Of a stretch of DNA of 64,000 bases, positions 10,292-40,234 are shown piece after piece (position 1 is the stretch's first letter; every line of letters begins with the position of its first letter). Source of the DNA: an uncultured Eubacteriales bacterium (lineage in GTDB: Bacteria; Bacillota; Clostridia; Oscillospirales; CAG-272). The position numbers were made by a program, and so were the translations under genes. Under the pieces are notes generated by a model. It was not told the origin of the DNA. It searched no databases and saw nothing but the letters and a program-made list of their open reading frames with translations. The stretch is taken from positions 96,614 to 160,613 of the forward strand of contig URDX01000001.1 of the NCBI GenBank assembly GCA_900546695.1. Reading direction: 5' to 3'.

Positions 10292-10327
10292 ACGCAAAAG
10301 ACACAGCCCGCGAATACTCGCGGGCTG
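10292..10327 (-). terminator. Rho-independent terminator of giant protein A (part of the duplicated cassette)
   Basis: On the minus strand: CAGCCCGCGAGTATTCGCGGGCTG hairpin followed by TGTCTTTTG. The same hairpin recurs at 14846-14869. Coordinates +/-1. Confidence 0.7.
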
Positions 10328-11283
10328 CAGAGGTTGGTTATTCAGATAATTCCAATGTCGGAATTAATCAGCGGTATGCGTAAGCAGCTGCTGCTCTGCC
10401 GTACTGCATCATTGCAGCAAGGAAGTCGGTATACTGCGGATATGCAGCATATGCAGATGCCATAGACTCTATGGAGTTAACTATTGTCTTGTCGCTGATG
10501 AGCGTTCCGTCAAGAGTATATACATTGATCTCAAGCTCCTCGCTCAGGTTCTGAGCAAATACGCCGACGACAACGTAGTATCTCGAGCGAGCGGTATCAT
10601 ATACAATGTCCTTTCCGCTAAACTCGCCCAAAAGCTCTCCGTTTTCCTTATACTTAACTACTACCTTGATGTTCTCGGTATTATACTGAGAATCGTCAAT
10701 GGTAAAGTTGTACTTGAAGGAGATAGAATCATCACAGTAAAGCTGTCTTGCCTTATAGGTTATTCCGGAAGCTCCCTCGTTAACATTCTTGCTGAACGTA
10801 TTCTTATAGTCGGTGTTTGCAGGAAGTCTGAGTGCCTTCATGGCATCCGTAAGATTTGCATTTGCAAGTGCATCGGTGCTGTAATCCTTGAACTGCTGTG
10901 CAGCTGCTATATAGTCAAGGAGATGCACCATAAGTCTGTTAAGCGATGTATCTGTGCTTCTGCCAAGCATCGTGTAGAGATAGGAAGTTATATTAGCGGT
11001 ATAAACTGCGGTGCTCTCATAAGTAACGCCATCCTTTACACCGTAAACATATACATCAACATCGTCAACTGCGCACTGAGGAGTAGAGCCGTATGCAAAT
11101 ACATATCTGTCTTTGCTTGCCTCATAAGAATATTCGGTTACGATCTTCTCAACATCGCCCAAGTTTTCTTTACGATGCTCAACAAACTTTACATAGAGGC
11201 TGTCGTATGCTGCTACATCCGCCTTGTTAATCTTTGCATTGATGTTGAGGACATCCATAAGGGTTACAGAGTAGGTTGCTACC
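10304..11283. repeat. 980-bp direct repeat, copy A (last ~305 codons + 3' UTR + terminator of protein A)
   Basis: The sense translation (NELGICA..VATYSVTLMDVLNINAK...YGRAAAAYAYR) is identical to copy B. The antisense ORF (10923.. vs 15465.., identical for about 120 aa) is also identical. Identity in two reading frames implies near-perfect nucleotide identity. The offset between copies is 4542 bp. Identity ends at ...GGTTGCTACC. Confidence 0.9.
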
Positions 11284-14200
11284 AAAAGCTTAACATTCGC
11301 TCCGCAATCAGCGCAGATTCCAAGCTCGTTGGTGTTATGTGCGATTACGCCGCTTACAGCACCGCAGGTCTTACATGTTCCGATATGACCTGCTTTATAT
11401 GCTGAGTTCTTCTGTGTAGGATCGCAAGTGTAAACATAGTCATGCACGTGTTCGGGCTCGACCGTTACGGTCCAAGTCTCGGGCTGTGTTATATCAATCG
11501 CCGTTTCTACGCCGCTTGCTTTACTCTTAAGCACAACATCAAAGCCTACCGAATATTCGCCCGCGGAAGTACCTTCCTTTACCTTAAGCTCGCATTCAAG
11601 GATATCCCCGCTTACGTCGGCGGTCTCTGCGGCAAATGCCGCAACGGCAATACCGCCCGATGTATCGGAAATAGATGTCCCGCTGATAAGCCAGCGCATG
11701 GAAACAATCTCAAAAAACAAGCTGTCGAAAACAGGCTTTACTCTAAGCGACTTAAGCGACGTGCAATCGGAAAGCGAGAGAGTAAATGTAAGCGTATCAC
11801 CCGCCTTGAGCGCACCGGATTCGGTATAAACACTGAGCGAGGGCTTTTCCTTTGCACCGCAGCGCGTACATACACCGTCGGTACCGTAGCTATGCCCGAG
11901 CGCGGGGGTGTTTCTTTCATCCTTCCTGCTGCATACGGAGCAGGAATATGTATTGCTTCCGGCTTGCGTACATGTCGCTGCCACCGACGACGAAAGTACA
12001 TAGCTGTGAGCAGTCATCGGTATAGTGACCTCAGATCCCGGCTTTATTTCATCACATCCGCTGCAATGAATACTCTTGCTGCCGGTCTGAGTGCAGGTTG
12101 CAGGAACATCCACGGTATAATCGGTCTGCCATATATGCGTATGCTTTTCGTAGGAATCGCCGAGCGTAACGGTCGCATCGAAATCCGCACCGTTGTCCTT
12201 AGCGTATATATTTCCGAACCGATAAAAATTATAGTTGCCTGATACAAAGTCATTTGCGCCGAGCGCGACCGACACTGTATCGCCCTGCTTATATCCCGGA
12301 GCATATATTCTTGCCTCAACGACATAGCCGTCACCGCCCGGATTCAGCGAATATGCATATTCGGTTGACGGGGTATCTGTCCCGTAGGCGGCAAAGTTCG
12401 AACCGTATCCGCCGGAAGAGCCGGTTGCATACGCATAGCCGTTTGTGGCGTTGAGGAGCACCTCCACGGAGCTGCCGGGCCAATCCGCGCCGTCCCAGAC
12501 CGAGACAAATGCATTATTATTCCTGTGTGCATTCTTTTCGGTAATTTCGGTCATCGGCGTCAGCGTCGAATCATGAACCGTAACATAGGCGTAGATATAA
12601 TCGGAATCGTACAGAAAATATGCTGCCGCCCACATGTCACCGGTATATTTATTGCGAAGGTTATCGGAAAGGGGCTTTCCGGTCAGCGCATGCTTTATGT
12701 CGGTATTATTCATTATTACACCGCAGGAAGCTTTATAAGCATCGTCGAGCTTTCCGTCTATTACGGGCGTATGCCGCAGCATCTGCTCGGAACCGAAGCT
12801 TATATTCGCGTTATTCTTTTCGTTTGCCGCGACAGCGTTCGCTTCGGTCTCCGTAGCGCAGAAAATAAGAGATTTAACATAAAGCCGGTCACCGATGCTC
12901 GCCTCATCAAAGAAATCCCACCGCATTGCATTCACGGTGCCACTCCATTTACTCAGCCCCGACAGATCAATTACGGTGCTTTGATAAGAGTCGTTCTGCG
13001 GAAGATCGACCGTCACGGTGCACTCGGGAGAAGCAGCGGTGATACTGCCGGCACACGGGAAGAAGCTTGCTTTGACCGCCTTATCAGAGTTAGAGGTCGG
13101 ATTCTTATAGGTAAGAACGGCATATTTACAGTCGTCGGCAGAAAAAGATACCGAACTCTTTGAATAGTTAATATAGAAATACGGATCATAGTCGGTCACG
13201 GTATTTATCTCAAGCGCATTTTCGGTTTCGCTGTAGCCGAGACTGACGAGCTTTTCAGCCTTGAGCGGGGTCTGCTGCAGGAAATATTTCATCATTTCGG
13301 AAGAGGTGAAGCGCAGCTTGGAGAGATCGTCATTATAGGTTGGCTGCGGGGTGAAACTGCCCTGTGCTTCACGCTCGGGTCCGTGAGACAAAATTATTGC
13401 ATTGACTACCGCGCGCTCGCTTCCGTCGCTCGGTGTACCCTGTAGCTTATACGAGCCGCTGTCGAGCGTAACCATCGTTGCCGAGCCGCCGCCGTCAAGA
13501 AGAAATGCATTTACTATATCAAGCTCCTTGCAGAGCGCAGGCATATCGGCAATGGGGAAGTATTTTGATGAGGATGTACTTGATACGCTGTCGAGCGTGA
13601 GAAATTTTATGCTGCCGGTTGAGGTGTATCCGATAATTGATGTTGCATACAGATTATTAAGTCCCGAGTTAAAAGCCTCGCCGTCTATAACGAGCGGAAT
13701 ATGGCCGCCGACACCCTCGGCTATACGGTGCAGAAGATCTGTATAATGACCCCATTTATCATATGTATTGACGGATACAGTGACAGTGTCTCCGACAGCA
13801 TAGGACGATAGCTTTGATATCTGAGCCGCGCCGCGAGCAGTGAGAATAAGACGGTTCTGCTTCATAGTCGGATTGCCGCTGTCGCTCGGCCCGTAAATAC
13901 CGCTGACCGTTCCGGTAATATTGCAGCCGTGAGCCACCTTATAATCATACGGAACATCAATAACCACCTCATATGCATCATCAAGAGCATAATTGTTAAG
14001 GCAGCCCTTATCGGTATACACAACGGTAGCCCCCTCAACCGGCAGTCGGTTAAGTGCCTCGGTATAAAGCTCGGTTTTACGGGTTGAATTGGTAACCGTA
14101 ATTCCCGTTCCGGGATTGCACATAAACGGAACATAATCATCGGTAACACCGAAGGTATAAAAATCGCTCTCATACGGAGTCTCCTCAGGTATGCACGCGG

Positions 14201-14705
14201 AGGTAATTATCTCGCCGTCACTTACATTAAAGCCGCGCGGCAATGTAAGCGTCTTTTTGACTACGGGTCCGTAAACAACGCCGTTATATTTGGTATCCTT
14301 AGTTCTTGAATGACAATAGTTTACCATCCAAAGATCACCGTTTATTGCAGCAATCGCAGTTTTACCCTCTCCGTTTTTGCTGTTAAAATTTGAAAGTATC
14401 TTTGATGTCTGCAAGAGCTGATTGGAATACGCACCGGCGCTCACAACATCGAGATAAAGATCCCGCTGTGAAAGGTCAAATTCAACAACGCTGAAATCCT
14501 TTGCCCCGTATGTAGAACTCGACGGAAGCTCGTAATAGTCGTAGCTTACGCCGTCGTACAGAGTTTTGGATGCTTTCGGAGATGTCCCCAAGACCGTCCC
14601 GGCGGCAGCACTCAGCGATACAGAAAAAGAAAGCGCTGATCCCGATACTACGGTTGCCGCTGAAATTAACCAAGCCGTTATTCTACTGCTGACTTTTGTT
14701 TTCAT
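10368..14705 (-). CDS. Giant secreted multidomain protein A: phosphodiester glycosidase (NAGPA/DUF2233-like) domain, CBM9-like module, Cys-rich repeats, cohesin-like module, shared C-terminal cassette
   Basis: 1445 aa. Signal peptide MKTKVSSRITAWLISAATVVSGSALSFSVSLSAAAG. AIAAINGDLWMV ... NAFLLDGGGSATMV is typical of phosphodiester glycosidase family proteins. PVIDGKLDDAYKAS...AAYFLYDSDYIYAYVTV is CBM9-like. TCTQTGSKSIHCSGCDE-type Cys modules are present. GDTLTFTLSLSD..LKSLRVKPVFDSLFFEIVS is cohesin-like. Confidence 0.85.
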   Translation of the reverse strand: MKTKVSSRITAWLISAATVVSGSALSFSVSLSAAAGTVLGTSPKASKTLYDGVSYDYYELPSSSTYGAKDFSVVEFDLSQRDLYLDVVSAGAYSNQLLQTSKILSNFNSKNGEGKTAIAAINGDLWMVNYCHSRTKDTKYNGVVYGPVVKKTLTLPRGFNVSDGEIITSACIPEETPYESDFYTFGVTDDYVPFMCNPGTGITVTNSTRKTELYTEALNRLPVEGATVVYTDKGCLNNYALDDAYEVVIDVPYDYKVAHGCNITGTVSGIYGPSDSGNPTMKQNRLILTARGAAQISKLSSYAVGDTVTVSVNTYDKWGHYTDLLHRIAEGVGGHIPLVIDGEAFNSGLNNLYATSIIGYTSTGSIKFLTLDSVSSTSSSKYFPIADMPALCKELDIVNAFLLDGGGSATMVTLDSGSYKLQGTPSDGSERAVVNAIILSHGPEREAQGSFTPQPTYNDDLSKLRFTSSEMMKYFLQQTPLKAEKLVSLGYSETENALEINTVTDYDPYFYINYSKSSVSFSADDCKYAVLTYKNPTSNSDKAVKASFFPCAGSITAASPECTVTVDLPQNDSYQSTVIDLSGLSKWSGTVNAMRWDFFDEASIGDRLYVKSLIFCATETEANAVAANEKNNANISFGSEQMLRHTPVIDGKLDDAYKASCGVIMNNTDIKHALTGKPLSDNLRNKYTGDMWAAAYFLYDSDYIYAYVTVHDSTLTPMTEITEKNAHRNNNAFVSVWDGADWPGSSVEVLLNATNGYAYATGSSGGYGSNFAAYGTDTPSTEYAYSLNPGGDGYVVEARIYAPGYKQGDTVSVALGANDFVSGNYNFYRFGNIYAKDNGADFDATVTLGDSYEKHTHIWQTDYTVDVPATCTQTGSKSIHCSGCDEIKPGSEVTIPMTAHSYVLSSSVAATCTQAGSNTYSCSVCSRKDERNTPALGHSYGTDGVCTRCGAKEKPSLSVYTESGALKAGDTLTFTLSLSDCTSLKSLRVKPVFDSLFFEIVSMRWLISGTSISDTSGGIAVAAFAAETADVSGDILECELKVKEGTSAGEYSVGFDVVLKSKASGVETAIDITQPETWTVTVEPEHVHDYVYTCDPTQKNSAYKAGHIGTCKTCGAVSGVIAHNTNELGICADCGANVKLLVATYSVTLMDVLNINAKINKADVAAYDSLYVKFVEHRKENLGDVEKIVTEYSYEASKDRYVFAYGSTPQCAVDDVDVYVYGVKDGVTYESTAVYTANITSYLYTMLGRSTDTSLNRLMVHLLDYIAAAQQFKDYSTDALANANLTDAMKALRLPANTDYKNTFSKNVNEGASGITYKARQLYCDDSISFKYNFTIDDSQYNTENIKVVVKYKENGELLGEFSGKDIVYDTARSRYYVVVGVFAQNLSEELEINVYTLDGTLISDKTIVNSIESMASAYAAYPQYTDFLAAMMQYGRAAAAYAYR

Positions 14706-14834
14706 ACCGTGTCCAACCTTTACAATATCGTTATATTTTTTACGATAGTTATAACTTGTTATGTCTATTATATCATTTTCTCACGCAAAGTCAATAGTTA
14801 TGGGGCGCGCAAAAGCGTTTTTGACGTCATTTAG

Positions 14835-14869
14835 ACTAAAAAGTGCAGCCCGCGAATACTCGCGGGCTG
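14835..14869 (-). terminator. Rho-independent terminator of giant protein B (part of the duplicated cassette)
   Basis: On the minus strand: CAGCCCGCGAGTATTCGCGGGCTG hairpin followed by CACTTTTTAGTC. Confidence 0.75.
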
Positions 14870-15825
14870 CAGAGGTTGGTTATTCAGATAATTCCAATGT
14901 CGGAATTAATCAGCGGTATGCGTAAGCAGCTGCTGCTCTGCCGTACTGCATCATTGCAGCAAGGAAGTCGGTATACTGCGGATATGCAGCATATGCAGAT
15001 GCCATAGACTCTATGGAGTTAACTATTGTCTTGTCGCTGATGAGCGTTCCGTCAAGAGTATATACATTGATCTCAAGCTCCTCGCTCAGGTTCTGAGCAA
15101 ATACGCCGACGACAACGTAGTATCTCGAGCGAGCGGTATCATATACAATGTCCTTTCCGCTAAACTCGCCCAAAAGCTCTCCGTTTTCCTTATACTTAAC
15201 TACTACCTTGATGTTCTCGGTATTATACTGAGAATCGTCAATGGTAAAGTTGTACTTGAAGGAGATAGAATCATCACAGTAAAGCTGTCTTGCCTTATAG
15301 GTTATTCCGGAAGCTCCCTCGTTAACATTCTTGCTGAACGTATTCTTATAGTCGGTGTTTGCAGGAAGTCTGAGTGCCTTCATGGCATCCGTAAGATTTG
15401 CATTTGCAAGTGCATCGGTGCTGTAATCCTTGAACTGCTGTGCAGCTGCTATATAGTCAAGGAGATGCACCATAAGTCTGTTAAGCGATGTATCTGTGCT
15501 TCTGCCAAGCATCGTGTAGAGATAGGAAGTTATATTAGCGGTATAAACTGCGGTGCTCTCATAAGTAACGCCATCCTTTACACCGTAAACATATACATCA
15601 ACATCGTCAACTGCGCACTGAGGAGTAGAGCCGTATGCAAATACATATCTGTCTTTGCTTGCCTCATAAGAATATTCGGTTACGATCTTCTCAACATCGC
15701 CCAAGTTTTCTTTACGATGCTCAACAAACTTTACATAGAGGCTGTCGTATGCTGCTACATCCGCCTTGTTAATCTTTGCATTGATGTTGAGGACATCCAT
15801 AAGGGTTACAGAGTAGGTTGCTACC
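14846..15825. repeat. 980-bp direct repeat, copy B
   Basis: See copy A. Upstream of 15825 / 11283 the two genes are still homologous (NELGICANCGDNKSLK vs NELGICADCGANVKLL) but diverged. Confidence 0.9.
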
Positions 15826-18677
15826 TTAAGACTCTTGTTATCGCCGCAATTAGCACATATACCAAGTTCATTGTAGTTATGTCCGAGTGCAGGAACGACT
15901 ATATCGCCCGATTCAGACTCTTCACCCGGATTGTCGCAACCGCTTCTCTTGCAGTACTTGGTATATGCTCTACCTTCATCCGTGCAAGTAGGCTCAGTCT
16001 TGAATTCGTACTCCCAGTCGTGACCGAGAGCGGGGATCTCTACTGCAGTACCATCCTTGATGGCGCCGCAGACGGTGCACTTTTCTGCAGATGTGCCTGC
16101 AACCTCGCAGGTAGCCTCTACAGTTACGGTGCGCTTGTAGTCATGATCGAGCATAGCGACATCCTGCGCAGAGCCTTCAACCTCAGCGCCGCAAACGGTG
16201 CACTTTTCAACAGAAGTACCAACTGCAGTGCAGGTAGGCTCAACAGTGGTTACGCGCTCAGTATTGACACAGCCACCAAGGCAGCTATCAAGAACAATGT
16301 TGGTAAGAGCGCCATTAAGAACAGCAACCGTCAAATTGCCACCATAATTCTTAAGGTTAATGCCATTTTCCTCGGTTCCGAGACCTATGTTGTATATAGA
16401 ATTTCCAACATAAGCTCTTCCGATATAGTTGTTAGGCGCGTAGCCTTCACCGATGTGAATCTTAAGCTCAACAGCGTTCTTGCTATCGGCAAAAGCATAA
16501 TCGACGCCTGCCTTCGCAATGAGTGTGGCACCGGTATCTACAGAAATATTATCTGCAAACGTAGAAGCGCCATTCTGGTTAAATATGCTGCAAGCGAAAC
16601 TATCCGTTGTCCAAAGATTCTTTGCGGTGAAGTCAAATTTAATCTCAGCTGTATTCGACCAAAACGGTCCAACATTGTCCGTCTTATCAGGATTACCAAT
16701 AGTAAAGTATGCAACATTCTCAGCATCATCAGCTTCAATGTAAACGTAGAAATAATCCTTGTCATATACTACATATGCGGTAGCGCCGTTTACATAATAC
16801 TTAGCGCCGGAGTCATATGCAGCATCCTTGGTTCCGTCAACCGCAGCGGTTACATAAGGAACCTTCGACGGAGCGTTAACATACTCGCCGCATCTCTCAC
16901 ACTTGCCGCTTGTAGTGGTATGACCGAGAGCAGGAGTAGTCTCTACAGTAAAAGGATTGCCGCAAACCGTACATACGCTTGTAACCTTGCCCTGTTCTAC
17001 ACAGGTGGGCTCGGTAGTGGTAAGCTCACCGGCAGTATGTGCAAGCTTCGGAATTTCAGTACGGGAATCTACGCCACCGCACTCAGCATAATCAACACAG
17101 TGGATAGACTTTACGCCCATCTTTGTGCATGTAGGCTTAACATCTATAGTATAATCCGACTCCCAGACATGGGTATGATTATATTTCTGACCGCTAAGTT
17201 CGATAGTTCCGTCAACGGGAGTTTCCCATGCATGACCGATAAAATACGACTTCTGCACGCCACCATACACGTTCAGCGAATAGTCTATTACATCACAAAT
17301 TCCAAGGTTAACAAGATACTTGTTGCCCTCCGCAAGTTTAGTTCCATCAAGAGCATACTCAACGATGTAACCACCATCATAAGTCGAAACTGCATACTTA
17401 GAGTTATTCTTCAAATAATCAGCTGCAGAATTCCACTTTGCTCCAAGGTCATCACCATTCGCTTGCTGTTTGTATGCAAAGGGCTGATATGCATTTATAC
17501 GAATTCCAGCAGCCTCTGTCTGCGTAGCAACATCTCTGAATATTGAAACAATCACTGATTCAGAATAAGTCATGTTGTTACTATCTCCGTACTGATTCCA
17601 TGCATCAGGGAGCAAGCCGCCCGTGGGGTCCTTGACATCAACAGCTACATATATGTTGTCGTTATCCCAAAGGAAATATGCTGTCGCGCCGCTCACCTGC
17701 TGAGGCTCATCGGCATACGATGCTCCACCAGCGTTACTATTGTTAATATTGCTAAGATCAAGATTAATCTGCGCAGACTTCTTGTAAGCGCCCTCAATAT
17801 TACCATCAACCTTAGCAGTCTCCTGAAGAACTATCTTCTGACCGCAAACAGAACAAGTCCCGTCAACGATATCATGAGCAGTCTTCGGAATCGGTGTTAT
17901 ATCGGTAACACCCTTGCATTCAGCATAGTCTACACAGTGACGAGACTTAGAACCTGCCTTAGAGCAGGTGGCGCGTGTGTCCTCAGTAAACTCGTCCTCA
18001 TAGACATGCGTATGCGTAGCACTATATGTCGCACCTAACGTTAAAACAGTGTAACTAGGATGCGCACCCCACTGCCAAAATCCCCAGTAATCGCCTTCTC
18101 CGGCGACGCATGAGCCGTTGACGAAATTACCACTTGCAAAGACAATCTCCTTGTTAAGAGAGGTCTTATTTGCTACTCTCACCTCAGCAGTAAAATCATC
18201 GCCGTTTACTGTAATCTTAAATTCACTCGAGTCAGCAGCACCGGAAGGGATATTAGATCCCATATTCACTTTTCCTTTGGTATCCTGCCACATCTGAACG
18301 TTACCAACAACACCGGATGTAGGATTATGGAACGGTTGAATAATAAAGTTAATTGACTCATTATTTATCGCATCATCATTCAAAGGCGTAATCGTAAGCG
18401 TTTGATTAAGATAGTTGCCGGCAGCCGCAGGCATCGTTCCTTCAACAAAGAGGTAGATATAACTATCATCATACAGGTAGCTGTATGTAACATCCCCTAC
18501 CACCTTCTTGTAGGATGTAGCATAAGCATCATCCTTCACAGCGTCGATAGTAGGCGTATACTTCAGTACTTCATTCGTATCAGCAGCCCCGATGCCGACT
18601 GTGGCAAGCGAAGCTGACTGAAGTACAAACAAAGAAGCGACTACTGTCGAAAGCACTTTTTTGAATGTTCTTTTCAT
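14910..18677 (-). CDS. Giant secreted protein B: three CBM9-like sugar-binding modules, multiple Cys-rich repeats, shared C-terminal cassette
   Basis: The likely start is ATG 18677 (AGGAGA 7 nt upstream), giving the signal peptide MKRTFKKVLSTVVASLFVLQSASLATVGIGAA; the ORF-track start at 18734 is over-extended. CBM9-like segments: TPTIDAVKDDAYATS..YLYDDSYIYLFVEG, VDGNIEGAYKKS..AYFLWDNDNIYVAVDV and AAVDGTKDAAYDSG..YVVYDKDYFYVYIEA. About 6 full and 3 short Cys modules. Confidence 0.85.
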   Translation of the reverse strand: MKRTFKKVLSTVVASLFVLQSASLATVGIGAADTNEVLKYTPTIDAVKDDAYATSYKKVVGDVTYSYLYDDSYIYLFVEGTMPAAAGNYLNQTLTITPLNDDAINNESINFIIQPFHNPTSGVVGNVQMWQDTKGKVNMGSNIPSGAADSSEFKITVNGDDFTAEVRVANKTSLNKEIVFASGNFVNGSCVAGEGDYWGFWQWGAHPSYTVLTLGATYSATHTHVYEDEFTEDTRATCSKAGSKSRHCVDYAECKGVTDITPIPKTAHDIVDGTCSVCGQKIVLQETAKVDGNIEGAYKKSAQINLDLSNINNSNAGGASYADEPQQVSGATAYFLWDNDNIYVAVDVKDPTGGLLPDAWNQYGDSNNMTYSESVIVSIFRDVATQTEAAGIRINAYQPFAYKQQANGDDLGAKWNSAADYLKNNSKYAVSTYDGGYIVEYALDGTKLAEGNKYLVNLGICDVIDYSLNVYGGVQKSYFIGHAWETPVDGTIELSGQKYNHTHVWESDYTIDVKPTCTKMGVKSIHCVDYAECGGVDSRTEIPKLAHTAGELTTTEPTCVEQGKVTSVCTVCGNPFTVETTPALGHTTTSGKCERCGEYVNAPSKVPYVTAAVDGTKDAAYDSGAKYYVNGATAYVVYDKDYFYVYIEADDAENVAYFTIGNPDKTDNVGPFWSNTAEIKFDFTAKNLWTTDSFACSIFNQNGASTFADNISVDTGATLIAKAGVDYAFADSKNAVELKIHIGEGYAPNNYIGRAYVGNSIYNIGLGTEENGINLKNYGGNLTVAVLNGALTNIVLDSCLGGCVNTERVTTVEPTCTAVGTSVEKCTVCGAEVEGSAQDVAMLDHDYKRTVTVEATCEVAGTSAEKCTVCGAIKDGTAVEIPALGHDWEYEFKTEPTCTDEGRAYTKYCKRSGCDNPGEESESGDIVVPALGHNYNELGICANCGDNKSLKVATYSVTLMDVLNINAKINKADVAAYDSLYVKFVEHRKENLGDVEKIVTEYSYEASKDRYVFAYGSTPQCAVDDVDVYVYGVKDGVTYESTAVYTANITSYLYTMLGRSTDTSLNRLMVHLLDYIAAAQQFKDYSTDALANANLTDAMKALRLPANTDYKNTFSKNVNEGASGITYKARQLYCDDSISFKYNFTIDDSQYNTENIKVVVKYKENGELLGEFSGKDIVYDTARSRYYVVVGVFAQNLSEELEINVYTLDGTLISDKTIVNSIESMASAYAAYPQYTDFLAAMMQYGRAAAAYAYR

Positions 18678-19311
18678 TCTTTCATCTCCTATAAAAAATA
18701 TTTTTGTTTTGCCTTCGGAGGGGCACACCCACATTCCCCTCCGATGGGCAAATTCAAATTAGTATATGCCGACAACGTCGGCTTACGCTTGTAATTGTAC
18801 CACAGAACGGAAACAATGTCAACTGATTTTCACACATTTTCTGTTTAATGTACACAAATATTTTTGATGTCGTTTTGTGTATCTCTGACAAAAGCGCGAA
18901 AAGCCTTGTATTATAAGGGTTTCTGCGATTTTAACGCACTGTGAATCGACTTGTCAGCAGTCACAATCGGCATAAAATTTGTGCAACATTTCTGTGCATT
19001 TTACCGTCGTATATTTCGTCTGTACGGTCAAAAAATGAATTTCGATTTAACACGGCGGCATTTCATTCATAATTCCAAAATATGTATAAAGCATGTGAAT
19101 TCTCCGATTATCTATCATTATAAATTATCGCGCACCCGCACAGCGGGCGGTTTTTTCAAGAGGATTTTTGAATTGTCACATGCCGATTTTGAAATTATAA
19201 AATTAAAAGAGAAAAAGCTCTTATATTTTTTCGACAAGCGCTTTATTTTTTCCGACAAATAGTATATAATAGGCACGGATACCGAAGCCTTACATTAATG
19301 AGGTAAATGCA

Positions 19312-21141
19312 ATGAAATTCAACGAAAAGCTGAACGAATACATCGCCGAGGTCGGCTGCACGGCAAAGGAGCTGAGCGCCGCGTCCGGCATTTCTCCCGC
19401 AACGCTGAGCCGTTACCGCTCGGGCGACCGCGTACCGAGCGCCGACACCGAGCAGTTCGCGCGGCTGTGCGAGGCTATCGCGCGACTTTCAGAAACGGCG
19501 TGCGGTCGGGGCCCGGATGCCGACGGTTCGATAAAGGGCGCTGCGGAATCGGGCTCTGACGCTTCGGCGCGTGATTCGGGGTCTGTCGGTTCGGAATCAA
19601 ACCGTTCGGCTGAGGCGATACGCGCGAGCTTTCTCGCATGCGAGGATATAATCGCCGCCGACCGCGAAAGACTGCGGCAGAATTTTTCCGCGCTCGTATC
19701 CGCCGCGGGGCTGAATATTTCAAAGCTCTGCCGACAGGCAAACTACGACGTTTCCGCCGTATTCCGCTTCCGCAGCGGCGAGCGGCAGCCGTCCGATCCC
19801 GAGCATTTTGCATCGGATGTCGCGGCATTCGCGGCGCGCGAGCTCGAATCCGAGGGCGACATTCAGATAATCGCGCAGCTGACGGGCGCGGATGCGTCGG
19901 AGCTCGGCGACCGCGCGGTCAGATACTCGCGTCTGCGAGACTGGCTGCTCGACGGCAGCGCGGGCGAGCCGAAGGAGAGCAGCATCTCGGGCTTTCTGTC
20001 AAAGCTCGACAGCTTCGACCTCGGCGAGTATATAAAGGCGATAAAATTCGACGAGCTGAAGGTGCCCACCCTGCCCTTTCAGCTGCCGACATCAAGGATG
20101 TATTACGGGCTGCAGGAGATGATGGCGAGCGAGCTCGACTTTCTCAAGGCTACGGTGCTCTCAAAGTCGACCGAGCCCGTCACGCTGTACAGCGACATGC
20201 CGATGGCAGAGATGGCGAAGGACCCCGAGTTTCCGAAAAAGTGGATGTTCGGCATGGCGATGATGCTGAAAAAGGGGCTGCATCTGAACAACATACACAA
20301 TCTCGACCGCTCGTTTGATGAGATGATGCTCGGGCTCGAGAGCTGGATACCCATGTACATGACGGGGCAGATATCGCCTTATTATTTGAAAAATTCGCAG
20401 AGCGGCGCTTTCAATCATTTTCTGCGCGTATCGGGCGCTGCGGCGCTGTCGGGCGAGGCGATAGCGGGATACCATACGAACGGGCGCTACTACCTCTCAA
20501 AGACAAAGGAGGACATCGCATACTACCGCCGCCGAGCGAATGACCTGCTGAAAAACGCCTCTCCGCTGATGGAGATATACCGCGAGGAGCGCGCGGGCGA
20601 GTTCAATGCTTTTCTGCTCTCCGACATAAAGCAGGAGGGCGGCAGACGCAGCATACTCTCCGCGCCGCCGCTCTACACCATGCAGCCGCAGACGCTCGAT
20701 GCAATGCTGCGCCGCAGCGGTGTTTCCGACGGCGACCGCGAGCGCATAACGACATTCGCCGCATCGCAGCTCGCGCAGGCGGAGCAGATACTCAGCCGCG
20801 ACACGATAGAGGATGAGATACCGCAGCCGAGCGATGAGGAATTTGCACGGCACCCCGCGGTGCTCCCGCTGTCGGGGCTTTTCTACGGGCGCGACATAAT
20901 CTACACGTCCGAGGAATACCGCGAGCATCTTGCACAGACCGATCGGTTTGCCGCAGCGCACCCGCGCTACACCGCCGTTTTCACCGCAGCGAACCCGTTC
21001 CGCAATCTGAGCATTCTTATGCACGAGGGTCGGTGGGCGATGATATCAAAGGGCAACGCTCCCGCGATACATTTCGTCATACATCACCCGAAACTGCGTG
21101 CCGCGATAGAGAGCTTTACCCCGCCGATGGTCGAGGAATAA
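19312..21141 (+). CDS. Large XRE-type regulator with two tandem HTH modules and a ~430-aa uncharacterised C-terminal domain
   Basis: 609 aa. HTH 1: KLNEYIAEVGCTAKELSAASGISPATLSRYRSGDRVPS. HTH 2: SALVSAAGLNISKLCRQANYDVSAVFRFRSGERQPS. A Ser/Gly/Asp-rich linker joins them. I do not recognise the C-terminal domain. Confidence 0.6.
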   Translation: MKFNEKLNEYIAEVGCTAKELSAASGISPATLSRYRSGDRVPSADTEQFARLCEAIARLSETACGRGPDADGSIKGAAESGSDASARDSGSVGSESNRSAEAIRASFLACEDIIAADRERLRQNFSALVSAAGLNISKLCRQANYDVSAVFRFRSGERQPSDPEHFASDVAAFAARELESEGDIQIIAQLTGADASELGDRAVRYSRLRDWLLDGSAGEPKESSISGFLSKLDSFDLGEYIKAIKFDELKVPTLPFQLPTSRMYYGLQEMMASELDFLKATVLSKSTEPVTLYSDMPMAEMAKDPEFPKKWMFGMAMMLKKGLHLNNIHNLDRSFDEMMLGLESWIPMYMTGQISPYYLKNSQSGAFNHFLRVSGAAALSGEAIAGYHTNGRYYLSKTKEDIAYYRRRANDLLKNASPLMEIYREERAGEFNAFLLSDIKQEGGRRSILSAPPLYTMQPQTLDAMLRRSGVSDGDRERITTFAASQLAQAEQILSRDTIEDEIPQPSDEEFARHPAVLPLSGLFYGRDIIYTSEEYREHLAQTDRFAAAHPRYTAVFTAANPFRNLSILMHEGRWAMISKGNAPAIHFVIHHPKLRAAIESFTPPMVEE

Positions 21142-37498: not shown

Positions 37499-38698
37499 TC
37501 AGCCCGCACTCGAGATATACAGGCGGTATGTACCGGGTACGGTAAGTGCCTTATCGCAGGTAAGGGTCATCATCTTCTGCTTGTTCAGCACTATACCGTC
37601 GCGAACGACCGAGATTATCTCCGCCTCGTTGCTGTCGGGCGGGTAGAACTTAATGACGTACGTACAGCTGCTGCCGTCCTCTCCTTCAATGAACGTCTCG
37701 TTATAGCGGAACGTGACCTTTGTCACGCCGCCATCGTTTGTCAGCACGTAATCGAAGAAGAACAGGTCGCATTTCAGTCCGCCCGGGGCGGTGAAATACG
37801 GCGCGCCGTCGCTGCCTATATCATATTCAAAGGTGATATTAAGGCATCCGCAGCGTCTGCAGGTTATGCCGTCGGGCGAGTCATGACCGAGCGGTTCGTT
37901 TGTCAGCATCCCGCAGTTCTTGCAGCGTGAGGGAGAGGTGCAGGTCGGAGCGGCAACGTCATGATCAAGCGAAGGAATCGTCTCGGTCTTCTTGATATCG
38001 CCGCAATTCTTGCACACCTCGGTCTCATATCCGGGGTCGATACATGTCGGCTTTATAGTCTCACCCGGGGCGTAGTTGTGACCCGTTGCGAGTATCTTTT
38101 CCTCGGTTTTCTTGCCGCATACCGAACAGGTCAGTGTCTTTATGCCGTCTGCCGTGCAGGTGGGCTCAAGCGTGACCGACTCCTCGTATTTATGCTCATT
38201 CGTCTTAGGTACGACAATGCGCTCGGTTTTGCCGCATATGCTGCATACCTTCGTACCCTCGCCCTCGGTCTTGCACGTTGCCTCCCGCGTCAGCGTTTCG
38301 GTGTAAACATGCTTGTTTGAAACGGGAATTGCATCCTCGACCGTCTCGCCGCAGCGCTCGCATGTGTAGCGGCGCAGCCCCTCATCCTTACACGTAGGCT
38401 CGGTCACCGTCTGAACGGTGCCTATCTTAGGCGAATGACCCTTTGCGTCGATGGGCTCAAGCTTGGTCTCGCGGCATTTTCTGCACTTCAGGACCTTGAC
38501 CCCGTTCTCGGTACATGTCGGCTCGGTCTGCGTGACGCCGTTATCCCATACATGGTCGCAGCTGCGCAGCGACAGCGGGATGGCGATGGCGGCGGTCAGC
38601 ACTATCACCCCTCCGATAACGCCGAAGGTGACGTTTCGTTTGACGGTGTTTGCGGTGATGAATTCCTTTATCCGTCCGGGTAGCTCTTTTAAATTCAT
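37499..38698 (-). CDS. Membrane-anchored protein with 6-7 tandem Cys-rich ~35-aa modules plus a C-terminal beta-rich domain
   Basis: N-terminal TM segment (FGVIGGVIVLTAAIAIPL). Then repeats of the form [EA]PTC[TK]xxGxxxxxCxxCG...(x8-12)..H: TEPTCTENGVKVLKCRKCRE, TEPTCKDEGLRRYTCERCGE, EATCKTEGEGTKVCSICGK, EPTCTADGIKTLTCSVCGK, KPTCIDPGYETEVCKNCGD, APTCTSPSRCKNCGM. Confidence 0.7.
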   Translation of the reverse strand: MNLKELPGRIKEFITANTVKRNVTFGVIGGVIVLTAAIAIPLSLRSCDHVWDNGVTQTEPTCTENGVKVLKCRKCRETKLEPIDAKGHSPKIGTVQTVTEPTCKDEGLRRYTCERCGETVEDAIPVSNKHVYTETLTREATCKTEGEGTKVCSICGKTERIVVPKTNEHKYEESVTLEPTCTADGIKTLTCSVCGKKTEEKILATGHNYAPGETIKPTCIDPGYETEVCKNCGDIKKTETIPSLDHDVAAPTCTSPSRCKNCGMLTNEPLGHDSPDGITCRRCGCLNITFEYDIGSDGAPYFTAPGGLKCDLFFFDYVLTNDGGVTKVTFRYNETFIEGEDGSSCTYVIKFYPPDSNEAEIISVVRDGIVLNKQKMMTLTCDKALTVPGTYRLYISSAG

Positions 38699-39571: not shown

Positions 39572-40234
39572 ATGACTGTGAATATAATACGTAGTGCGCG
39601 GCGGCGCAGGCTGTGTGCGCTGCTGCTTGCCGTGATAACGGCTGCGGTGCTGAGTCTGCCGGGCTTTGCTGCGCAGAAGCCGCTTCCGGGCGACAGCGTG
39701 ACCGTCGAGCTATATGGCAGCGAGCTTGGGGGAGAGGCGGTAAAGAGCATCTGCATCACGCCGCTCAGCCGCAGCGGGAAACTCAGGCTGACTTCGATAA
39801 AGGCGCACGGACCCGACGGCGCCGGCATCGTCAGCACCGACGGCGGGGTGCTCATTGCCGCGTTTTCTTCCAACACTCCGCTGCAGAGCGGGCTGCTGCT
39901 CAGCTGCGAATTTGTTGCCGACGGTCTCGGCGAGGATGAGGTGTTCTTTGACGTGCGCGCAAAGGCTGCGGGCGCCGACGGCGAGCATGATATTACGCTG
40001 ACCGAGCCCGAGGTGCGCGTGTTCCGCATCGGATGCTCTGAGGATTATGACGTGAACGGAGACGGCGCGGTCAATGCCATTGATCTTGTGCGGCTCATGC
40101 GAATAATCGGCGGCGCAATGACCGACGGCTATGCCGACATAAACGACGACGGCACGGTAGATACGCGCGATCTTGTGCGTCTGCTGCACGCGCTGGCGGT
40201 CGGTGTGGGGTTAGAGCGTAAGACTCATTCTTGA
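39572..40234 (+). CDS. Small secreted cohesin-like + type I dockerin protein
   Basis: Signal peptide RRRRLCALLLAVITAAVLSLPGFAAQ. Cohesin-like body: GDSVTVELYGS..VKSICITPL..LLLSCEFVA. The C-terminus has a duplicated Ca-binding dockerin motif, DVNGDGAVNAIDLVRLMRII ... DINDDGTVDTRDLVRLLHAL. The start is uncertain: ATG 39572 sits only 2 nt after GGAGG, while GTG 39578 has better spacing. Confidence 0.7.
   Translation: MTVNIIRSARRRRLCALLLAVITAAVLSLPGFAAQKPLPGDSVTVELYGSELGGEAVKSICITPLSRSGKLRLTSIKAHGPDGAGIVSTDGGVLIAAFSSNTPLQSGLLLSCEFVADGLGEDEVFFDVRAKAAGADGEHDITLTEPEVRVFRIGCSEDYDVNGDGAVNAIDLVRLMRIIGGAMTDGYADINDDGTVDTRDLVRLLHALAVGVGLERKTHS

Follow-up and report, generated by a model that had tools for sequence, protein, structure and literature searches.

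A C-terminal module kept identical, apparently by recurrent gene conversion, between two tandem genes for secreted proteins in an uncultured Oscillospirales bacterium

A 64,000-nucleotide stretch of DNA from an uncultured Eubacteriales bacterium (GenBank assembly GCA_900546695.1, contig URDX01000001.1, positions 96,614 to 160,613; this whole stretch is here called the window) contains two genes that lie in tandem on the minus strand, gene A (10368..14705, 1445 aa) and gene B (14910..18677, 1255 aa), whose products end in one and the same 304-aa module. A and B are shown to be old, architecturally different tandem paralogues coding for secreted multidomain proteins. Comparison of their loci across strains and a second species shows, at the level of assembled sequence, that the 3' segments of the two genes are kept identical by recurrent gene conversion, with allele replacement between strains on top of it. 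Taken as a whole, an explanation that combines recurrent intragenomic conversion, strain-level allele replacement and a putative docking role of the module is very probably correct.

The repeat at the 3' ends of the two genes

When the window is compared with itself base by base at an offset of 4542 bp, positions 10304..11283 (the 3' end of gene A) and 14846..15825 (the 3' end of gene B), both on the minus strand, prove identical over an unbroken 980 bp with 0 mismatches, a figure that strictly stands for an identity of at least ~99%, as short-read assemblers may smooth a few real differences in near-identical repeats. The original prediction, made from the sequence of the window alone, had described this duplicate and its coordinates and had taken scattered substitutions as a sign against ongoing conversion; both the direct comparison and blastn found the duplicate exact, and no such substitutions occur in it. 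Read in the sense of the genes, the identical run starts with the final base of the codon that precedes V1142 of A and continues through 304 codons and the stop to the 64-nt 3' untranslated region (UTR) and most of the terminator stem. The shared protein segment spans V1142-R1445 of A and is encoded at 10371..11282 in A and at 14913..15824 in B (both minus strand).

The two ends of the run are sharply defined. On the downstream side, identity stops inside the 3' arm of a 12-bp terminator stem, 2 nt before that arm is complete; in gene A this stem belongs to the intrinsic terminator hairpin at 10302..10329 (minus strand, followed by a T tract), whose counterpart in gene B lies at 14844..14871 (minus strand). 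On the upstream side, ~75% nucleotide identity persists across ~60 nt and then gives way to background with nothing alignable. This short stretch codes for a Cys-rich linker, NELGICADCGANVKLL in A (11284..11345, minus strand) and NELGICANCGDNKSLK in B (15826-15887), which has not been homogenised in the lineage of the window. Blastn returns 97.99% identity over 1043 columns, with all 17 mismatches within the linker stretch. The genes are therefore homologous but diverged just 5' of the breakpoint, as had been predicted, and the passage from 100% to ~75% to background identity at 11283/15825 confines conversion to the tract. A search of all six-frame open reading frames (ORFs) of the window with a hidden Markov model of the module recovered these two copies only and no third.

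Variation of the module between strains and species

Contigs of close relatives were taken from an exhaustive HMMER search with the module, and among them seven loci from two species are complete: the window, L089 and L005 in one species, and L004, L092, L090 and L091 in the other. All related loci preserve the same gene order, namely LiaF, DUF4097, a divergently oriented helix-turn-helix (HTH) gene, B, A, a xanthine/uracil permease, a phosphoribosyltransferase and an aldose epimerase. In every one of the seven, the A and B modules are 100% identical at the protein level, with 0-1 nucleotide mismatch over 976-1131 bp, whereas between genomes the identity of the module is 36-84%. Thus, the window's module is 72% identical to that of L005, 55% to that of L004 and 36% to that of L090, with L004 and L090 at 41% from each other; the partial, B-type contig L003 has a module 84% identical to the window's. 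Conspecific strains, which are 98-99% identical elsewhere, have module alleles just 41-72% identical. Recent or ongoing conversion that homogenises the module only, as had been suggested from the window alone, is strongly supported by this pattern.

The contrast between module and surroundings can be seen within either species. Between the window and the conspecific L005, the synonymous divergence (dS) is 0.015-0.05 in four flanking genes, and the body of A, at 97% protein identity and dS 0.09, tracks the strain phylogeny; the module, with dS 1.02 and a ratio of nonsynonymous to synonymous divergence (dN/dS) of ~0.19, does not. In L005 itself the A and B modules share an exact repeat of 976 bp that is bounded just as it is in the window. 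The second species, whose flanking genes are at dS 0.7-1.2 from those of the window, has one allele in L004 and L092 and another in L090, L091 and the contigs L007 and L008; in either case the A and B modules of a genome differ by one nucleotide, over 1098 bp in L004 and L092 and over 1131 bp in L090 and L091. L004 and L090 are ~99% identical in nucleotides outside the modules, and their megablast alignment breaks exactly at both modules. Partial contigs tell the same story: in L006, the body of B matches that of the window at 90% identity and the module at only 39%, and the contig ends at the repeat end; the first 55 nt of L007 and L008 are found again just after the stop codon of A, so that these contigs too break at a repeated 3' segment. 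Together, modules cluster by genome and not by gene, whereas bodies cluster by gene and strain, a grouping that only repeated homogenisation fits.

The endpoints of the identical tract point in the same direction. Its length is 980 bp in the window, 976 bp in L005, 1098 bp in L004/L092 and 1131 bp in L090/L091, and its 5' end coincides with the first codon of the module in the window and in L005, whereas in L004, L092 and L090 it lies 118-151 bp beyond that codon on the upstream side. The linker of B in the window and L005 is B's own (GHNYNELGICANCGDNKSLK), whereas in B of the second species and of L006 one finds an A-type linker (H-S/D-YVY-S/T-C ... NELGIC..CG.NV...), indicating that the tract there reached further upstream and that the direction was from A to B. 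The differing endpoints argue for independent events in different lineages. The locus is thus an unusually clean natural example of bacterial concerted evolution, with a tract that is identical within a genome and replaced wholesale between strains, and in which the differing endpoints show repeated and directional events.

Within the paralogue-identical tract lies a strain-variable cassette with conserved sequence on either side. In the comparison of the window with L005, the linker is near-identical, as are the first ~80 nt of the module, the 3' UTR shows ~90% identity, and the ~830 bp in the middle are 55-85% identical; the alleles of the window and L003 are mosaic, with an identical block of ~160 nt. 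Non-reciprocal homologous recombination between the direct repeats, 4.5 kb apart, homogenises the 304 codons, the 3' UTR and the terminator, and the same 3' segment behaves as an allelic cassette in the population, new alleles entering by homologous recombination. Such entry is indicated by the occurrence of deeply divergent alleles (dS ~1 or saturated) in an otherwise near-identical locus, and the conserved ends (linker, first ~80 nt, 3' UTR) could act as recombination anchors. Given that the body of A, which lies between the two modules, was not replaced, a single import cannot account for both modules; the parsimonious path is that one gene received the import and its paralogue was then converted within the genome. 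The import may also have extended over most of B, whose body in L005 is only 63% identical to that in the window.

In a few loci one of the partners is disrupted. Gene B of L004 has an in-frame TAG (L004 6330-6335) and still carries a module identical to that of its partner, which suggests that homogenisation is driven by recombination, independently of selection on B; gene A has a frameshift at about 2470-2560 in both L007 and L008, which are two independent assemblies. Conversion alone, without selection, could keep the copies identical.

Assembly and age of the duplication

That the duplication might be an assembly artefact had been raised together with the original prediction, and three public assemblies of the same strain that reproduce the junctions or the whole locus indicate that it is not. 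L089 (ERZ28621551, a 25.9-kb scaffold) extends over the entire locus, differing at 2 of 19,213 nt, and contains the 980-bp repeat in the same exact form; L001 (ERZ1748966) corresponds to window positions 21180-11251 with one mismatch, crossing the B copy, the spacer and the body of A before it stops 32 nt inside the A copy; and L002 (ERZ28620637) stops precisely on the repeat's last base, at 14846. Breakage of contigs at the ends of an identical tract is the behaviour expected of an exact repeat in a de Bruijn graph. A single module that was collapsed or used twice, or differing copies that were made identical by the assembler, might be suspected given that the assembly method of the window is unknown, that most related loci are short-read metagenome contigs and that several contigs break at the repeat. 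These breaks, however, coincide with the repeat ends, and each copy has unique junctions on both sides (B body-module, module-spacer-A, A body-module and module-permease flank) that recur in the window, L089, L005, L004, L092, L090 and L091, from different samples and pipelines. Moreover, without its copy either gene would have no C-terminus or stop codon, copy-specific single mismatches survive in L004, L092 and L090, and L090 sits on an 820-kb contig. Hence, we consider an artefact very unlikely.

If the identity merely reflected youth, owing to one very recent duplication or domain fusion in this strain, zero differences over 980 bp would indeed be expected. Against such an origin, the same tandem pair with a shared module is found in the second species, whose divergence in the flanks makes the arrangement old; moreover, in every lineage the copies match each other and differ from those of other lineages, and the tract endpoints vary between lineages. 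We therefore regard recent origin as extremely unlikely.

Two points still weigh against recurrent conversion as read here. Most of the loci come from short-read metagenome assemblies, in which bubble removal can erase a few true differences, and conversion is read from assembled contigs; among the few public contigs examined, no form was found with a deletion between the direct repeats, which had been predicted to allow loss or amplification of the 4.5-kb unit. The same property of assemblies has a practical side: exact 1-kb repeats break short-read assemblies predictably, so that such genes are under-represented or truncated in catalogues of metagenome-assembled genomes.

Architecture of the two proteins

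From its N-terminus, the product of gene A, of which P0004 and L005_A are orthologues, consists of a signal peptide, a NAGPA phosphodiester glycosidase domain, a CBM9-like region, four-Cys repeats, a weak cohesin-like region, the Cys-rich linker and the C-terminal module. The product of gene B combines a signal peptide with three CBM9-like regions, between which lie four-Cys repeats, and ends in the same module. Both signal peptides are of the Sec type without a lipobox Cys. The start of gene B is placed at 18677 in view of its orthologues, which begin with MKRTFKK, and of a preceding GGAG; the ORF itself is readable from 18734. The exact gene B protein recurs on other public contigs. The CBM9-like regions of A are 26-30% identical to those of B in tblastn.

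The domain labels that had been assigned from the translations alone held for the glycosidase and only in part for the rest. NAGPA (PF09992) is found in A at residues 298-439 with E 3.9e-17 and 63.4 bits against a cut-off of 25, above the gathering threshold. Cohesin (PF00963) in A scores 17.8 bits against 24.1 (E 0.0039) and CBM9_1 (PF06452) in B 19.8 bits against 23.4 (E 7.8e-4), both below the Pfam cut-offs, and because of these sub-threshold scores we keep the two labels as 'like' only. The orthologue P0002 scores 28.9 bits for CBM9_1; a PDB sequence search with A residues ~955-1087 recovered no cohesin. A further protein of the window touches on the cohesin-like region: a 220-aa secreted protein encoded at 39572-40234(+) has a type I dockerin (Pfam E 3.4e-9) and an N-terminal domain that is 32% identical to A residues 969-1082, within the weak cohesin-like region. 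The dockerin of this protein and the cohesin-like region of A suggest components of the cohesin-dockerin type in the organism.

Each gene has its own terminator and, by a consensus scan, its own promoter-like site. That of A is TTGACT-16-TATAAT with a TG at 14767..14794 and that of B is TTGACA-17-TACAAT with a TG at 18794..18822 (both minus strand, 11/12 matches), each being a match to the consensus only. The site in the spacer between B and A suggests that A would be a separate transcription unit.

The four-Cys units are about 40 aa long and recur in the window at 11700-12150, 15830-16300 and 16880-17100 as well as in the ORF 37499-38698(-), and so belong to both A and B and also to a distinct membrane-anchored protein of 399 aa, with the consensus ..TCT..G.K...C..CG......IPALGH. 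A 62-nt direct repeat, D2 (16063/16186, 77%), corresponds to two of these units. No matching Pfam model was found for them, and in other members of the module family (e.g. P0048 and P0092) they often directly precede the module. By their sequence they look like an undescribed extracellular spacer repeat of zinc-ribbon-like character.

Outside its module, gene B is also variable in its own right. Its body (residues ~85-900) is hypervariable in the comparison of the window with L005 (63% protein identity) and L003, with CBM9-like modules rearranged between conspecific strains, while the first ~85 residues are identical.

The module family: distribution, passengers and predicted structure

The exhaustive HMMER search places the module in a family of 994 cluster representatives at E<=1e-3, with 178 at E<=1e-10, these representatives being clusters at 50% identity, about 1000 in number. 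A word-indexed protein search gave 1 match with the module alone and 4 with a 24-sequence profile, which reflects a limit of the index and not rarity. A pattern scan of the GTDB species representatives with the module alone recovered no relative, the species of the window being apparently absent there, and a profile scan of the same set gave 169 confirmed loci, of which 80 were kept for the statistics given below. These 80 belong mostly to Acutalibacteraceae, Oscillospiraceae and Ruminococcaceae, with few from Lachnospiraceae. Hosts of the family include Candidatus Fimenecus, Faecousia, Eubacterium sp. CAG:180 and the cultured Eubacterium coprostanoligenes ATCC 51222, and the loci come from human, Hadza, goat, cattle, deer and rabbit gut, in keeping with a gut and rumen Oscillospirales family.

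The position of the module in its proteins is nearly invariant, ending at most 7 residues from the stop codon in 76 of the 80 loci, while the passengers upstream of it are extremely varied among 85 full-length members. BspA-type leucine-rich repeats (LRR_5) are present in 27 of the 85; other binding or structural passengers are LRR_8, Big_2, Big_3, cohesin, CBM26, X25, C-type lectin, CAP and DUF6273, and enzymes are represented by GH95, GH88, subtilase (S8), M14 and M64 peptidases and lipase. None of the SLH, sortase-anchor, CWB and dockerin families is among the passenger families listed for these 85 members.

Searches for a known anchoring signature were likewise negative. No match to sortase LPXTG, SLH, CWB2, choline-binding, LysM, SH3b/GW or dockerin was found in A, B, the module or 23 further modules, in agreement with the earlier remark, which the Pfam and NCBIfam models bear out for A and B, that no LPXTG, SLH, dockerin or choline-binding signature could be recognised. 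Neither Pfam (2025) nor NCBIfam (2026) has a model that matches the module of the window or 23 other family members, and a PDB sequence profile search with the module gave nothing below E 1.7. The suggestion that the module is undescribed was thus upheld by these searches and by the structural comparison given next; nor did we find a published description of it in the literature searched, where the anchor in the Limousia mucinolysome paper is an LPxTG scaffoldin.

AlphaFold2 with a 24-sequence alignment predicts the structure of the module with a mean local confidence score (pLDDT) of 93.4 and a predicted TM-score (pTM) of 0.89, whereas a model from a 2-sequence alignment (pLDDT 56) was discarded. 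The predicted order of elements is a β-sandwich, a helical hairpin, a second β-sandwich and C-terminal helices, the sandwiches being immunoglobulin (Ig)-like. Alignment of the first half with the second by hhalign gives a probability of 98.7% (E 1.8e-16); the two halves are homologous, and the module consists of a ~150-aa unit duplicated in tandem, each copy made of a β-sandwich and a helical hairpin. The most conserved motifs, LLVDLLNYGAAAQ and AMMKYGxSA, lie in the helices. Foldseek against the PDB returned just generic tandem Ig/FN3 or antibody matches with query TM-scores (TMq) of 0.16-0.26 and no solved wall-binding domain, and against the viral models of BFVD nothing informative beyond generic Ig-like tandems. 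The module of the window is acidic, with an isoelectric point (pI) of 4.7, and the pI is 4.2-5.5 in 23 of 24 sequences.

All six alleles that were compared align end to end, with divergence even over both sandwiches and helices, and a hypervariable patch in the module was rejected on account of this even spread. The dN/dS of the alleles is ~0.2, a value that is uninformative on positive selection with dS near or at saturation.

In other genomes, modules of the same genome (L010, L035, L053, L047, L078, L054, L080 etc.) are 54-93% alike, with a median of ~64%, as against a median of 40.6% and a 95th percentile of 58% for modules of different genomes. These values hint that matching within a genome may be family-wide, although lineage-specific expansions could also explain them. 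In L039, from the cultured type strain E. coprostanoligenes ATCC 51222 (NZ_FUWW01000004.1 86849-99721), two adjacent ORFs bear modules that are 64% identical.

Since it fits none of the sequence models or folds of known anchoring families against which it was compared, the module is filed as a new, uncharacterised domain family, a member of none of these, that acts like a constant C-terminal anchoring or sorting module. This flags a large unannotated family, with a cultured member available, that occurs on many of the large proteins secreted by abundant Clostridia of gut and rumen. The module is a concrete candidate for the element that retains such proteins at the surface in these Clostridia.

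Possible functions of the module

In light of these features we tentatively propose that the module could be a cell-surface retention or partner-docking domain. Three lines of sequence evidence speak in favour of this role: the module is constant and obligatorily C-terminal on signal-peptide proteins with passengers typical of surface or extracellular proteins; no other anchor can be recognised in the proteins that bear it; and the two proteins of one cell always have the same allele. The same version would be needed in A and B if they docked on one strain-specific envelope component or on each other. A more specific proposal, which is possible but rather doubtful, is that the module might represent, in Oscillospirales of gut and rumen, a new class of domain by which proteins dock non-covalently to the cell envelope, with strain-specific 'lock-and-key' types that conversion keeps matched. 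If so, it would be the counterpart of SLH, CWB2 and the sortase signal for hundreds of leucine-rich-repeat adhesins, glycoside hydrolases, proteases and cohesin proteins; the matching type would be required on every surface protein of a cell, and conversion would rematch these proteins after an allele switch.

Several observations tell against a docking role. The module is acidic, unlike several teichoic-acid-binding anchors, and by Foldseek it has no resemblance to known wall-binding folds. A conserved neighbour gene was not found, no gene family being present in more than 4 of the 80 family loci, so that genomic context suggests no partner. Co-variation of the module allele with the adjacent polysaccharide cluster was considered for three strains of the second species and rejected: L004 and L092 share an allele and have different cluster genes, whereas L090 and L092 share the cluster and have different alleles.

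Alternatively, the module could be a homotypic or heterotypic assembly domain by which A and B co-assemble or form a surface lattice, without being an anchor to wall or membrane; identity of the copies would then be favoured since self-recognition needs matching alleles. Such a role would suit the pseudo-dimeric internal duplication, the concentration of the most conserved residues in the helical segments that carry the two motifs named above, the lack of a ligand-type fold match and the closer likeness of within-genome than of between-genome pairs. Yet this likeness can also stem from lineage-specific expansion, and the very different passengers, enzymes included, give co-assembly no obvious rationale, and we consider an assembly domain unlikely.

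If instead the module formed an exposed tip, whether as an adhesin or ligand-binding domain (for host glycan, mucin or other bacteria) or as something that phage or antibody targets, frequency-dependent selection would drive its diversification between strains, and the paralogues would be identical as a by-product of conversion. While the deep allelic divergence among conspecific strains, the Ig-like β-sandwich domains and the gut and rumen habitat are all what one would look for in such a tip, the low dN/dS and the even divergence with no hypervariable patch are not, and neither is the strictly C-terminal position on signal-peptide proteins with no other recognisable means of retention at the cell. 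On balance, an exposed tip appears quite unlikely. Finally, the conserved body with a strain-variable C-terminal ~300 aa, sharply demarcated by a NELGICxxCG motif, recalls polymorphic toxins with a variable effector, but this resemblance is scarcely credible as an explanation, given that all alleles are homologous with one non-enzymatic Ig-like and helical fold, that the terminator follows within about 64 nt of the stop, that no conserved immunity-like ORF lies downstream in the 80 loci, and that within a genome the two paralogues have one and the same allele, an orphan array being absent.

Comparison with known systems

Concerted evolution of the docking segment of surface proteins is already known. 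In Lactobacillus acidophilus, slpA and slpB, reportedly described by Boot et al. in the 1990s, are said to be adjacent surface-layer genes with an identical C-terminal third that is the cell-wall-binding region; they are reportedly mutually inverted with one of them silent, a 6-kb inversion swaps expression, and the anchor is a basic SLAP-type domain. The present genes resemble them as neighbouring genes for surface proteins in which N-terminal and central parts differ and the C-terminal part is identical; they differ in being direct repeats with a promoter-like site and a terminator each, and in having an acidic module of no described family. The sapA/sapB homologues of Campylobacter fetus, studied by Blaser and colleagues in the 1990s, are likewise said to have an identical conserved segment that docks the paralogues to the surface while the variable parts recombine; this segment is reportedly N-terminal, binds the lipopolysaccharide of the Gram-negative cell and occurs in discrete strain types, with antigenic variation by promoter inversion. 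Shared with it are the identity of the segment within a genome and the discrete types between strains, whereas in our case the segment is C-terminal, the hosts are Clostridia and no co-varying glycan locus was found.

In the combination of a signal peptide, a varied passenger and one constant C-terminal element, the family is comparable to proteins with LPXTG, SLH, CWB2, choline-binding repeats, dockerin or the C-terminal domain (CTD) of the type IX secretion system (T9SS), although it differs from all of these in having no Pfam or NCBIfam match and in its predicted fold of two sandwich-plus-hairpin units. The top Foldseek match, N2-linker-N3 of Staphylococcus aureus IsdH (PDB 9s3p), also has two Ig-like β-sandwiches joined by a helical element; with a TM-score of 0.18, a root-mean-square deviation of 22 Å and 12% identity, the likeness is topological only, with no evidence of homology or of haem/haemoglobin binding. 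The Giant1-5 genes of Apilactobacillus kunkeei code for tandem very large extracellular proteins with a common SH3b-like C-terminal domain that is thought to bind the wall, and their authors saw no indication of recent gene conversion (PMC12863079). The tandem arrangement of large extracellular proteins with a common C-terminal domain is thus shared, whereas conversion is the dominant signal in the present locus. The libraries and literature searched contain no description of the domain family or its breadth, nor of strain-level switching of alleles in which the two paralogues obligatorily match.

Genomic neighbourhood

A polysaccharide-biosynthesis cluster lies ~4 kb downstream of A in the second species and varies there: in L004 (19200-24335) it comprises Bac_transf, Hexapep, Polysacc_synt_2 and DegT, and in L090/L092 (17979-22332) Bac_transf, an epimerase and GT2. 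In the species of the window, a SipL/LysM sporulation gene takes this position.

The region of genes A and B (10500-19500) has a G+C content of 41-53%, compared with 52-64% in the flanking housekeeping genes, which fits a recombining, possibly imported surface-protein island. Divergent from gene B lies an ORF (19312-21141(+)) for a 609-aa protein with an N-terminal HTH of the XRE type, which is kept at the same position in every syntenic locus (L004, L005, L089, L090 and L092), and this protein is a candidate regulator of the B/A pair.

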